Shown here: in pieces, positions 47,957 through 57,688 of the stretch
Numbering within the stretch: position 1 is the stretch's first letter
How the letters are laid out: each line of letters opens with the position of its first letter
NCBI RefSeq assembly: GCF_024700885.2
Contig: NZ_CP117016.1
Length of the DNA: 64,000 bases
DNA from: Escherichia coli
GTDB lineage: Bacteria > Pseudomonadota > Gammaproteobacteria > Enterobacterales > Enterobacteriaceae
Reading direction: 5' to 3' (one strand)
Translations under genes and position numbers: made by a program
Notes under the pieces: generated by a model
The model's input: the letters and a program-made list of their open reading frames with translations, nothing else
Databases searched by the model: none
Told to the model about the DNA's origin: nothing

Positions 47957-48501
47957 TATAATCCTCCGGGTAATCTGGTTCCTGCTGCTGCCCCGATTGG
48001 CGCAGGGGTGCTTTGAGTAAACGGACTCCACGTCCCACCAAACATCTGGTACGCACCGTATGCCTTCAGAGGCGCAGTGAGCAATGTTGTTGCTGCTCCC
48101 ACATTCCCCTGTTTACGGGCTGAACTGGCTTCTGCTTTATAGTTGGCAGCCTGAACCTGATAACCGTAAGCCTCGCGTTGCGCGTTATTCACCGTCGTCA
48201 GCGAATCAAGAGCGCCAAACTGGGCAGTGTCGCCAAATATATCCAGCGCGTTACCGGTAGATAAATCGGCGCCGGTCGCCCCCATTGTCGCCGCCTGTGT
48301 ACCAAGCCGCTGTCGGGTCTCTCTGCGCCGTTGCTCAGCTTCAGCGTTACCTCTGTTTATTGCATCATTTGCCTGAGCTGTGGCTATATCTGCGTTCGCT
48401 TCTGCAACCTTCGAGGCATACTTTCCCTGTTGGTACTGGGTGTATGCCTGAATGCCACTCATGGCGAGCATTGCGCCACCAGCAATAACCGGATCGCACA
48501 T
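47956..48501 (-). CDS. Phage virion-associated protein (181 aa)
   Basis: ORF in virion block; Ala/Gln-rich. Confidence 0.4.
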
Positions 48502-48965
48502 TATTTTCTCTCCATGTGAAATCTGTGGAAATTAAGACCAAGAGCACCATAAGGCGCGGCTTCTTCAAGCCTGAATCCAAGCCAGTGCAGCCATGCTTTG
48601 GCAACATGGTTTCGCTCGTCGACGTAGTTTTCCAGGCGTGGATAAACTGCCAGCATCTGCTGCAATACAGGGCGGCAGTGGCGAAGAAATGTCTTCTGAT
48701 ATTTTTCAATACGGCTGGTTCCTACCAGCCAGGGCGTACCATTGCCACCGATCATTGACGCCGGAGATACGCCAAACATGGTTACCAGTTCTCCGTTCGC
48801 AAATCCTGACCAGGCCATAGTCGCAGTGCGAAGACCAACACGCAGCGCATCTTCGGTAGTCATCAGCGATACCGCATACAGTTCGTCAATATCAGCCTGA
48901 CGAACATCCGGAAAAATCATCTGAAGATGCTCTTCGGTAGCGGGAACAATTCGAACATCGATCAT
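48501..48965 (-). CDS. Putative GNAT-family N-acetyltransferase (154 aa)
   Basis: C-terminal NHVAKAWLHWLGF resembles the GNAT acetyl-CoA-binding signature. Confidence 0.35.
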   Translation of the reverse strand: MIDVRIVPATEEHLQMIFPDVRQADIDELYAVSLMTTEDALRVGLRTATMAWSGFANGELVTMFGVSPASMIGGNGTPWLVGTSRIEKYQKTFLRHCRPVLQQMLAVYPRLENYVDERNHVAKAWLHWLGFRLEEAAPYGALGLNFHRFHMERK

Positions 48966-51436
48966 CAGAATCCCCCAACAGTAAGGCGAGGAATAACGGC
49001 AAGAACAGACAGCGGCAACGGGTCAAGCTGACGGATTCTTACACGTCCGTTTTTGCCCCAGTTACTGTCCAGTTTCACTTCTACTTTTCCGGTAGCGTCA
49101 TCAACAGGATCATCGTAGAACTCGAATTCACGCTGTGGATATTCGTACCATTTACCGCCGGGCGTAGTCGCCCAGATGCCGCGGCTGGCATTCACAACCA
49201 GAGTAACGGATGGGATCACCTGTTTTTTGTCCAGCAGCGTTTCCTGTCCGTTAATGTTGATATCCAGTGTTTCGAATTCAGCAGTTATTGGCAGGCCGAT
49301 GTGCACTACAGCCCCCGGTGATTCCAGCGTGACGGCGCCTCCGGAAACTACTTTCTGTGGTTCCACGTTCGCATCAGAGAGGATGTTTACGGTCTGACCT
49401 TCAAGATGAGACAAGCCGCCAAATGCCCGGCGCGCCATCTGCCAGTTCGTGGTGGCCACATTCCTGAGGGATGGCGGGACGTTCCTGTTAGCACGAACCA
49501 CTACAGCGGTGTTGCTGGTTACAGAAATAATGTCGCAACGTAATTCTTTTGACACTTCATCGCCAGTATCAGGATCAGTTCCGGTATAAGGGAACTGTAG
49601 TTGCGCACCGACATCACTACTGGTGAAGTACGCACCGCCAGAAATACTGATTGTATATTCCGCGCGGTAATCCCATTCGCCAGAACCACCAGTGATGGTC
49701 ATCGTTCTGTCAGACGTATTTCTTCCATCATAGCTAAGGCCAGAATCAACAAAGAAAGCATCTTCATCGCTGGTAAATAAACGGCTGGACAGTCTCTCGA
49801 TGTATCTCACTGTTTGCCCGTTAACGGTTCGGTTAACGACGAAATACACCGCATCTTCATTTCCTTCGCTGATACTGCATGTGCTTTCATATTTTCCGGT
49901 ACTGGATTGTGGTGCCCATGCAAAAACCTGCTGATCACGCAAATAGGTCATCACCAGTAATTTACCGTCATCACGAATGCAGAAGGCGCTGGAGTAAGGG
50001 ACAATAGAGAAGCACCAGTCAACAATGCTGTGCTTCTGAAAAAGATGATTGGCAAGGATGGTCAGGTCGTTCCCCTGATAGCCGTCAACATCGAATGAGT
50101 AGGCCAGATCACGGACAACACTGCCTTTCTCCTGGACGAACAGAGCAATATTCGCCACGGCAATTGGTGGGACATTGCTCGAGCCATTTGATCCCTGAGA
50201 GCTGAATGCAAATGATGATGGGGTTAACACTTTGTTCTGGTCGCCGGTGATGACGTACTCACCTCCGGAAGTCAGTGCCACCAGCGAACCGACATCAATC
50301 AGGTGGCGGATCTCATTAACCTGACGCCCGGCATAGGTGTAGATAATTCTGTCGTTATCCTGCGTAGGATTGCTTTTGCCAAAATCCTTATAATCCCCAG
50401 TACGGCTGGCCCAGATAGTCTGAGGGAACGCAGTCGATGCGGCGAAGTAAAGACGTTGTTGATAATAAACAACAGTGCCAGGATAACCATTAACACTGTT
50501 CCAGGCATATTTAGCCCATTTATAGCTGGCATTATCCTCGCCAACGACCTGCGAAGGGATATAGGAAATCACCTCGGCAGTTGCAGTAGTGCCGTTTACA
50601 GCAGTGATACGGGCAATGCCAAACCCACTGTGCAGATACTCCCACTCAATGCCAGTATTATCATCACCGGATCCGCCCCAGCCATCCCATGATGTGCCTT
50701 CTGTATGCGAAGGGCGCAAAGTACCAGTTTTGCCTGCTGTAACGGCGCGATAGTAGTTACTGTCTGCACGGCGAATATCACCAATCGACGTACTCTTACT
50801 GGTTTCCCATACCGGCACTGAATCCACTGCTGGCTGTTCCAGATAGAACAATTTGCCTACCTGCTCCGCGCCAAAAATAGAGGCGCTTGCCGTTAACGTA
50901 ATTGTCCCGGTGCTGGCGCTGGCATAAACCGTCACTGACTCGTCAATATTGATATCTTCAAATGGCCCGTTCTTCGTTACCACATCAACCAGTTGCCAGT
51001 TGTCATGCGCATAGCGGCGCAACTCTTTCGGCGGGTATGCCGGATGAACCAGCGTAAGCACGTCTGCGCTTTGCGTGAATTTAATTCTGAACAGATCGGC
51101 TTCAGTATATGGCGTGGCAATTTCATAAATAACATTGCTGCTGTTCAGCACCAACGCACCATCTTTGATAACGCGCATGTACTGGTGTCCGAACTCCAGA
51201 GCATAAGTCTGAACCGTCGAGAACTGGAACGGGATCAGGCGGCATTTCCGATTTGGGTATTTGGCGGCACCGACAAAACGCGTACCAGGTCGATTCTCAA
51301 CGCCGCCATACTGCCGCACGATAAAGTTATCGCACTTGCGCAATGCCACCTGGTACTTCGCCATGTCGATACGACCGTACAACGACGGTCCAATCTCACC
51401 ACCGGCAAAGCTGGGCTGGATCCAACTGATAGCCAT
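48965..51436 (-). CDS. Tail protein (823 aa), probable tail tube/hub component
   Basis: Large beta-rich ORF downstream of head genes and upstream of ejection proteins. Confidence 0.5.
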   Translation of the reverse strand: MAISWIQPSFAGGEIGPSLYGRIDMAKYQVALRKCDNFIVRQYGGVENRPGTRFVGAAKYPNRKCRLIPFQFSTVQTYALEFGHQYMRVIKDGALVLNSSNVIYEIATPYTEADLFRIKFTQSADVLTLVHPAYPPKELRRYAHDNWQLVDVVTKNGPFEDINIDESVTVYASASTGTITLTASASIFGAEQVGKLFYLEQPAVDSVPVWETSKSTSIGDIRRADSNYYRAVTAGKTGTLRPSHTEGTSWDGWGGSGDDNTGIEWEYLHSGFGIARITAVNGTTATAEVISYIPSQVVGEDNASYKWAKYAWNSVNGYPGTVVYYQQRLYFAASTAFPQTIWASRTGDYKDFGKSNPTQDNDRIIYTYAGRQVNEIRHLIDVGSLVALTSGGEYVITGDQNKVLTPSSFAFSSQGSNGSSNVPPIAVANIALFVQEKGSVVRDLAYSFDVDGYQGNDLTILANHLFQKHSIVDWCFSIVPYSSAFCIRDDGKLLVMTYLRDQQVFAWAPQSSTGKYESTCSISEGNEDAVYFVVNRTVNGQTVRYIERLSSRLFTSDEDAFFVDSGLSYDGRNTSDRTMTITGGSGEWDYRAEYTISISGGAYFTSSDVGAQLQFPYTGTDPDTGDEVSKELRCDIISVTSNTAVVVRANRNVPPSLRNVATTNWQMARRAFGGLSHLEGQTVNILSDANVEPQKVVSGGAVTLESPGAVVHIGLPITAEFETLDININGQETLLDKKQVIPSVTLVVNASRGIWATTPGGKWYEYPQREFEFYDDPVDDATGKVEVKLDSNWGKNGRVRIRQLDPLPLSVLAVIPRLTVGGF

Positions 51437-52041
51437 CAGGACAACCTCGCAATGGTAAACTCGTCAACCGGTGGCTGTGGTTCCTGTGATTCATTCTGGC
51501 TATGCGAGCCAGCACTAAGAATCACGCGATTGTACATATTGAGGGCAAACGTACCGAGGTCTGCATTCCCAGTCAGCGCCATGTTAATAGCTGCCGCAAG
51601 ACGCCAGGCCAACGCCTCCATAAAAATGGCATCAAACATGTTCACATCTGTAACACGAGAGACATACTTGAGCCATGCCTGAGGCTGGTCTGTGTAGATC
51701 AACTTTCCTGTTCCGTTGGTGTCTACACCTACTTCGTACTGAACGCGCATTGCTGCTGTTGGATTGCGTACACCAGGAAGCATAATTTCAGTAATGCGCA
51801 GACAATCGGACGGGTACTGATACGCATATTCCCAGTCAGGCGGTAGATTGCTCGTATCTGCAAGCGCCACGCGTTTGGTAGCAAAGTTCCAGTCAAAATC
51901 AGAAAGCACAGCATCACGGCAGGCCTCAAAGTGCAGCGAACATTCCCCCGCTTCCTTGCTGGCTTCCGTCAGGCTGTTAATGCTGCGGCTATTGCCAATA
52001 TTGGACAGCGCACGATTGCAGATCTCTACTACAGAGGCCAT
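51436..52041 (-). CDS. Phage structural protein (201 aa), possible head-tail adaptor
   Basis: Position between head and tail genes; overlapping stop/start with neighbours. Confidence 0.4.
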   Translation of the reverse strand: MASVVEICNRALSNIGNSRSINSLTEASKEAGECSLHFEACRDAVLSDFDWNFATKRVALADTSNLPPDWEYAYQYPSDCLRITEIMLPGVRNPTAAMRVQYEVGVDTNGTGKLIYTDQPQAWLKYVSRVTDVNMFDAIFMEALAWRLAAAINMALTGNADLGTFALNMYNRVILSAGSHSQNESQEPQPPVDEFTIARLS

Positions 52042-57568: not shown

Positions 57569-57645
57569 TGTGGCATTAGCTCAGCTGGACAGAGCAACCG
57601 CCTTCTAAGCGGTTGGTCGCAGGTTCGAATCCTGCATGCCACGCC
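57569..57645 (+). tRNA. tRNA-Arg (anticodon UCU), phage-borne
   Basis: Cloverleaf by hand: acceptor GTGGCAT/ATGCCAC, D-arm GCTC/GAGC, anticodon loop CTTCTAA, T-arm GCAGG-TTCGAAT-CCTGC, encoded CCA; resembles E. coli argU. Confidence 0.85.
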
Positions 57646-57688
57646 AGAATCACGCCTAAGGACCGTGATGCCAGAAGTTCCAGGTGCT

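Follow-up and report, generated by a model that had tools for sequence, protein, structure and literature searches.

A 64,000-nucleotide stretch of Escherichia coli DNA (NCBI RefSeq assembly GCF_024700885.2, contig NZ_CP117016.1), called here the window, carries a prophage in which a 154-residue open reading frame (ORF) encodes, on sequence comparison, an internal virion protein A (IVP-A) of the epsilon15/phiV10 type, which has diverged within the T7 gp13 family. The protein can be regarded, with moderate confidence, as a non-catalytic assembly factor built on the GNAT fold, which would bind the ejection proteins of the phage, remain unpackaged and act independently of acetyl coenzyme A (acetyl-CoA). 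The gene and the two segments on which this reading turns are the following.

48501..48965, minus strand: IVP-A gene, 154 residues, orthologue of phiV10 gp16 and epsilon15 gp13, T7 gp13 family, predicted GNAT fold.
48690..48707, minus strand: motif A position (beta4-alpha3 loop), residues 87-92, EKYQKT; register set by the secondary structure and by the distance to motif B.
48573..48611, minus strand: equivalent of GNAT motif B, NHVAKAWLHWLGF, residues 119-131, spanning helix alpha4 and the turn that leads to beta6; read from the sequence.

The ORF is a real gene and not a chance reading frame, because it matches PHROG 308 'internal virion protein' with E=3.9e-62 and belongs to a family of 9164 clusters. 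This family was collected with a profile of 32 homologues searched against 1.84 billion cluster representatives (50% identity, E<=0.001; 6225 clusters at E<=1e-10), and 185 close homologues are found in enterobacterial prophages. The initial annotation, which proposed an acetyltransferase gene lying between a tail protein and large internal proteins, had the position right without stating the strand: the gene is read from the minus strand, with an 823-residue nozzle gene upstream and the internal virion protein genes downstream. Its ATG, preceded by the Shine-Dalgarno-like run GGGGGA, overlaps the nozzle gene's stop codon by one base (TGATG), and its own stop codon overlaps the start of the IVP-B gene as TAATG, by which the two genes are coupled in translation. 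Overlaps of these two kinds occur at all junctions from a 201-residue gene to the large internal protein, which indicates that this entire block is translationally coupled.

The assignment to the T7 gp13 family becomes apparent at the level of the profile. Taken alone, the 154-residue protein stays below the threshold of Pfam PF11090 (Phage_T7_Gp13, formerly DUF2833), with E=0.089 and 13.6 bits against a cut-off of 25. A family profile built on 111 diverse members was aligned to T7 gp13 by hhalign with a probability of 93.5% (E=2.3e-7, residues 45-135), and 58 of these 111 members match PF11090 individually (best E=2.6e-7); the UniRef name of one family member is DUF2833 protein. The PHROG matches of the protein are confined to internal virion proteins and proteins of unknown function. 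A Foldseek search of predicted viral structures (BFVD) gave as top matches proteins named 'Internal virion protein A' or 'protein inside capsid A', with TM values of 0.8-0.88, from T7-like phages (Vibrio phage N4, Pseudomonas PFP1, Dickeya Ninurta and Ralstonia RSB2). The same search returned several 'putative acetyltransferase' proteins and a DUF2824 protein, the family of P22 gp14 (E=1.7e-7, TM 0.66-0.68).

Structure prediction bears out the GNAT fold. The AlphaFold2 model of the protein (pLDDT 94.7) follows the order of the superfamily, b1-a1-a2-b2-b3-b4-a3-b5-a4-b6-b7, and in this model the fold is complete. Several protein N-alpha-acetyltransferases, namely Ard1, Naa30, RimI, RimJ and RimL, are among the top structural neighbours. 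The segment NHVAKAWLHWLGF fits N-x-x-A-x-x-h-h-x-x-x-G-F, the pattern of motif B, and no other stretch of the family is as well conserved (N119 88%, W125 99%, L126 96%, W128 91%, G130 and F131 99%). When the pattern is written with its tyrosine, as N-x-x-A-x-x-h-Y-x-x-x-G-F, the residues N119, A122, G130 and F131 are present and conserved, and the tyrosine position is occupied by L126. The GNAT-like, acetyl-CoA-binding signature with which the protein had been said to end is therefore only partly what was claimed: it exists as a motif B, which is not motif A, the main pyrophosphate-binding signature, and 23 further residues forming strands beta6 and beta7 come after it. Searches of PDB sequences, either with the protein or with the family profile, gave sub-threshold matches only; in the best of them (E=0.76), the profile aligns NHVAKAWLHWLGF to motif B of E. 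coli YjaB (NEQNEQAVGFYKKVGF). Judged on sequence, the resemblance of IVP-A to canonical GNATs is not significant.

The cofactor loop departs from that of an acetyltransferase. Motif A was surveyed, together with fused GNAT domains, in the best 150 of about 9000 family clusters, and its conservation was computed on 136 representatives sharing at most 50% mutual identity; its register was also compared with the RimI sequence. The corresponding residues of the window protein, EKYQKT, contain no glycine. Two of the 136 representatives carry the pattern [QR]xxGx[GA], and a glycine is found at residue 90 in nine and at residue 92 in four of the 136. This segment is among the most variable of the family, with an entropy of 3.05 bits over residues 87-92 against a mean of 2.27 across the protein and 1.30 across residues 111-131. 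In real GNAT families, the motif A loop is normally among the best conserved parts. The tyrosine of motif B, for its part, acts as general acid in many GNATs, although it is not used by all; the position is leucine in 96% of the family representatives. None of the Acetyltransf_* models of Pfam matches the 154-residue protein or any of the 111 family members, and the acetyltransferase models of NCBIfam do not match the protein either. These results lend no support to the active acetyltransferase put forward in the initial annotation. IVP-A is probably not an acetyltransferase in the canonical sense, and the family-wide loss of both the pyrophosphate loop and the catalytic tyrosine suggests that it is most likely a non-catalytic scaffold with a GNAT fold, in other words a pseudoenzyme. 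The segment RLSGKA of T7 gp13 was considered as a retained motif A and rejected: its glycine occurs in 9 of 119 homologues of the T7 group and is a coincidence.

The conservation that motif A lacks is concentrated elsewhere. Invariant or near-invariant positions comprise R22, D25, E28, G65, G76, P78, W79, L111, N113, V115, D116, R118 and N119 and, in the C-terminal part, W125, L126, W128, G130, F131, G140, F146 and F149. These residues are carried by elements lining the GNAT cleft, where they would fit either a binding surface or a non-canonical active site. IVP-A is produced from the late structural operon, its gene lying between the nozzle gene and those of the ejection proteins IVP-B, IVP-C and IVP-D. 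Under the reading favored here, it would be made along with these proteins and act in the infected cell as a morphogenesis factor that binds or escorts them. Binding would probably involve the conserved cleft, that is R22/D25/E28, W79, N113/D116/R118/N119 and the helix of motif B. The ejection proteins would thereby be built into the core of the procapsid, and IVP-A would then remain outside the mature particle, which is what has been reported for T7 gp13. It would work without acetyl-CoA, and it would not be an injected effector.

Published work on T7 is in line with this scheme. Hardies et al. 2016 described the T7 operon as a succession of IVP genes A-B-C-D downstream of tubular tail B (PMC4819975). 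According to Kemp et al. 2005, as cited in PMC4819975, T7 IVP-A is needed for morphogenesis yet absent from the virion. The name 'internal virion protein A' is a misnomer for this very reason, the protein not being retained in the particle, and it was described instead as a 'nonstructural IVP assembly protein' (PMC4819975). The same authors reported that T7 IVP-A matches acetyltransferases in HHpred (section 9) and ascribed a standard IVP-A to epsilon15. A GNAT gene located beside the IVP genes of SIO1-like phages was likewise equated with T7 gp13 in the Cobavirus paper (PMC6775973). According to T7 genetics, IVP-A is needed for infectious particles; a description of its chemistry was not found in the literature searched. 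No biochemical study of any IVP-A was found in this search, nor were proteomic data on epsilon15 or phiV10 gp13, the reach of the search being limited.

Several points weigh against the assembly factor interpretation. The absence of the window protein from virions is carried over from T7 by analogy, and the location of T7 gp13 is still given as 'undetermined' in some reviews (PMC8811829, PMC2696425). The fold is intact, and the polar invariants N113, D116, R118, N119, R22, D25 and E28 are carried by elements of the GNAT active-site cleft, a combination that would fit a live enzyme too. In addition, the beta4-alpha3 loop has the canonical length and alanine is the commonest residue at both glycine positions, so that CoA might still be bound.

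These same features, namely a complete and confidently predicted fold, invariant polar residues on beta5, at the start of alpha4 and on alpha1-alpha2, and a motif A loop of canonical length with alanine common at both glycine positions, are also what favors a second explanation, which we consider possible but doubtful. IVP-A would be a live acyltransferase during assembly, using acetyl-CoA or a different acyl donor, bound in a non-canonical mode, to modify one or more ejection proteins while remaining itself unpackaged. The substrate could be, for example, the N-terminus of IVP-B after removal of the methionine, and the modification would confer competence for incorporation or for membrane insertion. 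The presence of N-alpha-acetyltransferases among the structural neighbours speaks for such a function, and in all IVP-B homologues the second residue is small (C, S or P) and precedes a hydrophobic helix; small residues at this position are, however, common among proteins generally. This explanation has also to account for an unconserved motif A, for the missing tyrosine and for acetyltransferase hidden Markov models that match 0 of 111 members, and no report of acylation of ejection proteins was found in the literature searched. A more specific version, the acylation of an N-terminal cysteine of IVP-B, was examined separately: T7 gp14 and the IVP-B of the window both begin with Met-Cys followed by a hydrophobic helix. 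It was rejected as a general mechanism because the IVP-B proteins of four diverse loci, L084, L086, L087 and L088, begin with MSG, MSG, MPP and MSM, respectively, which means that Cys2 is not conserved.

Gene fusions also bear on the question. In P0146 (L086 5001-5924), a protein of 307 residues, the IVP-A domain is followed by a second, canonical GNAT domain with the motif RKTGAG. P0167 (L084 6001-6933) has 310 residues and the same succession, its canonical domain carrying the motif RKRGAG and matching Pfam Acetyltransf_1 with E=1.6e-7 and 32 bits, above the cut-off of 20.7. Both fused proteins occupy the slot that follows the nozzle gene. The canonical domain of P0167 is not matched by the family profile (probability 0.1%). 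Judging from these domain assignments, acetyl transfer is associated with the IVP-A locus in some lineages, which speaks for an acyltransferase function at this place, and each fusion could possibly be a pair made of an inactive and an active GNAT. In these lineages acetyl transfer is nevertheless supplied by the canonical domain that was added, an argument against the IVP-A domain being the catalyst; the fusions also suggest that this domain needs a separate catalytic partner for acetylation. No canonical GNAT partner is found beside IVP-A in the prophage of the window.

The loci that encode these relatives present other peculiarities. P0236 (L087 5001-5942), of 313 residues, is a tandem of two IVP-A-like domains and also lies after the nozzle gene and before IVP-B. 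In L084 (6920-7357), L086 (5917-6366) and L088 (3121-3582), IVP-A and IVP-B are separated by a further conserved gene of 145-153 residues; it has no Pfam match and is absent from the window prophage. At the IVP-D position, L084 (9977-12933) and L086 (9310-10924) encode giant proteins of 1929-2285 residues in which 'large polyvalent protein' domains are recognized (LPD22, LPD3, plus a faint match to ART-PolyVal), possibly an enzymatic cargo in the ejection-protein block of these phages.

In nucleotide sequence, the 3.6 kb surrounding IVP-A are 98% identical to phiV10, an epsilon15-like Escherichia phage of the Uetakevirus group, and to many typing phages of E. coli O157. The phiV10 counterpart of the 154-residue ORF is PhiV10p16, annotated as similar to epsilon15 gp13. 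The other genes of this minus-strand series are, in order:

First of the minus-strand gene order, minus strand: Bbp16-like protein, 145 residues, Pfam Bbp16.
51436..52041, minus strand: tubular tail A or adaptor-like gene, 201 residues, PHROG 394 'tail protein' (E=1.1e-85) and PHROG 9239 'tail tubular protein', corresponding to PhiV10p14.
48965..51436, minus strand: tubular tail B or nozzle gene, 823 residues, PHROG 376 'tail protein' (E=0), corresponding to PhiV10p15, similar to epsilon15 gp12.
47956..48501, minus strand: IVP-B gene, 181 residues, ejection protein of the T7 gp14 family, Pfam T7_gp14 (E=2.5e-7, above the curated cut-off) and PHROG 418 (E=1.1e-72).
45149..47956, minus strand: large internal protein at the IVP-C position, about 837 residues from ATG 47956, PHROG 992, 1044, 873 and 7182, corresponding to PhiV10p18.
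43350..45152, minus strand: epsilon15 gp16-like internal protein, 600 residues, PHROG 1145 (E=0), corresponding to PhiV10p19.
40870..43344, minus strand: epsilon15 gp17-like virion protein at the IVP-D position, 824 residues, an ORF matched by position to PhiV10p20 'virion structural protein'.

In the published comparison, epsilon15 gp12 appears among the homologues of tubular tail B (PMC4819975, Table 2) and epsilon15 gp17 is assigned as the IVP-D homologue (PMC4819975). The large internal protein contains a muralytic-like region, with PHROG matches of the transglycosylase or endolysin-like kind. It appears in the program-made ORF list with a GTG start at 48031 and 960 residues; ATG 47956 is its likely true start, because it overlaps the IVP-B stop codon (TAATG), follows GGAGGA and is annotated in this way in phiV10.

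The order observed in the window equals that of T7 (gp11, gp12, gp13, gp14, gp15, gp16), and the succession tubular tail A, tubular tail B, IVP-A, IVP-B, IVP-C and IVP-D is the standard operon of T7-, epsilon15- and P22-like podoviruses. A locus search with a close alignment returned only prophages that are 97-99% identical. Contigs encoding diverse family representatives were used instead: in all four loci picked on this basis (L084, L086, L087 and L088), IVP-A keeps its slot between the nozzle gene and an IVP-B of the T7_gp14 family, in the order nozzle, IVP-A, the optional gene of 145-153 residues, IVP-B, muralytic protein and giant protein. What had been presented as an uncommon arrangement is thus the rule and not the exception, the gene family is a known one, and its likeness to acetyltransferases was already in print (PMC4819975, PMC6775973). 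The family-wide absence of motif A, now quantified, and the fusions to a canonical GNAT are mildly new.

This genomic context bears on two other explanations. The first, put forward in the initial annotation, is that of a GNAT acetyltransferase that would be packaged alongside the ejection proteins, enter the cell with the DNA and acetylate a target of the host. Such an effector would find some support in the fold, in the co-transcription and translational coupling of the gene with those of the ejection proteins, in the database name 'internal virion protein' and in the existence of host-acting GNATs in phages, such as Rac of LUZ19 (cited in PMC10504331). The Rac-type GNATs of host takeover are, however, early genes with canonical motifs, whereas IVP-A combines a degenerate cofactor motif with a late operon and a strictly structural synteny in all the loci checked. 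Neither a signal nor a partner pointing to packaging was found in the analysis, and by analogy with T7, whose gp13 is reported not to be kept in virions (PMC4819975), its name would be misleading in this respect. Delivery with the DNA is consequently very unlikely. The second explanation, a moron with an unrelated GNAT function (a TacT/AtaT-type toxin, an acetyltransferase for antibiotics or small molecules, or an anti-defence enzyme), draws its sole support from the generic fold and is effectively refuted by synteny and homology. Indeed, the position of the gene is strictly conserved in the related phages examined, with overlapping codons on both sides, and the gene is homologous to T7 gp13. 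It has no antitoxin partner and no promoter of its own, and its matches lie with the PHROG families of internal virion proteins or of unknown function and not with the acetyltransferase models of Pfam and NCBIfam.

The rest of the prophage shows further features. A 374-residue ORF (35644-36768, plus strand), overlapping another one on the minus strand (36084-36797), has a weak match to hexapeptide-repeat transferases (E=8e-4) and sits in the slot of oac, the O-antigen O-acetyltransferase gene of phiV10. It may encode a different serotype-converting acetyltransferase if the plus strand is the coding one. The tailspike gene (36819-39893, minus strand) encodes 1024 residues with a C-terminal Peptidase_S74 domain, an intramolecular chaperone; compared with the 875 residues of the phiV10 tail fibre, this length indicates that the receptor-binding module was swapped. 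A tRNA-Arg gene (anticodon TCT, 57570-57646, plus strand) separates the portal-side genes of the prophage from its terminase-side genes and is read from the other strand than the structural genes. On the left, the prophage apparently ends just beside an Rz-like gene (33666-34148), to the left of it, and no integrase was found on this side. Beyond this end, the region 29277-33447 encodes a DUF5384 protein, an ORF resembling glycine-zipper or TraT-like lipoproteins and a MASE1-EAL protein, which are probably host genes or morons.

In a very large proportion of short-tailed phages, the operon of the ejection proteins is headed by a GNAT-fold protein, with 9164 clusters in this subfamily alone, and the question of enzyme versus chaperone is framed by the family-wide loss of the acetyl-CoA loop on the one hand and by the canonical GNAT fusions on the other. 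The annotation 'IVP-A / T7 gp13-family morphogenesis protein, GNAT fold' is preferable to 'acetyltransferase' or 'injected effector'. A broader proposal can be made only tentatively and appears rather improbable: the IVP-A domain, which nearly all T7-, epsilon15- and P22-like podoviruses conserve, would be either a working acyltransferase with a non-canonical site or, as in P0146 and P0167, the substrate-presenting half of a two-GNAT enzyme, and would covalently modify the ejection proteins before they are packaged. If this were true, post-translational modification would be a general requirement for building the DNA-ejection machine of podoviruses.

Several known systems can be compared with the protein. 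Canonical GNATs such as Ard1/Naa10 (4pv6), PA4794 (3pgp) and RimI (5isv) have the N-x-x-A...G-F of motif B in common with IVP-A at 8-15% identity, but IVP-A lacks their Q/R-x-x-G-x-G/A loop, the tyrosine of motif B and any Acetyltransf_* match. An analogy is offered by proteins with a catalytically inactive GNAT domain. Mycothiol synthase MshD contains two GNAT domains, one of which is catalytically inactive. P0146 and P0167 share the architecture of such two-GNAT proteins with one inactive domain, and in MshD-like proteins as well as in the pseudo-HAT domain of OGA (6r45), the GNAT fold is kept without the canonical cofactor signature, as in IVP-A. The window protein differs from the MshD type in being a single domain; the analogy is functional, with homology at the level of the superfamily only. 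P22 gp14 (Pfam DUF2824, PF11039) is encoded at the equivalent syntenic position, ahead of the gene for gp7, an ejection protein of the IVP-B type, and Hardies et al. 2016 (PMC4819975) named it as the IVP-A homologue of P22. A direct sequence link was looked for and rejected: the family profile gave an hhalign probability of 0.1% against the single P22 gp14 sequence, and PF11039, a separate family, was not matched by the 154-residue protein in the Pfam search. The relation to P22 gp14 would be one of fold and synteny only.

T7 gp13, also named 'probable scaffold protein', is the member of the family for which genetics is available, and the only one. It shares with the window protein the slot directly between tubular tail B (gp12) and IVP-B (gp14) and about 20% identity; with the family, it shares the invariant W of beta4, the N-x-V of beta5 and, in motif B, N...(W/F)L..(L/I)G(F/A), as well as the lack of a conserved motif A. 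It is shorter, with 138 residues against 154, has a 4-residue insertion in the beta4-alpha3 loop and differs by the N-terminal block R22/D25/E28, which is conserved in the epsilon15-type family and proper to it. The closest relatives are epsilon15 gp13 and phiV10 gp16 (Uetakevirus), orthologues of equal length with equal neighbours; phiV10 itself differs from the window prophage in its tailspike and in its O-antigen-modification module.
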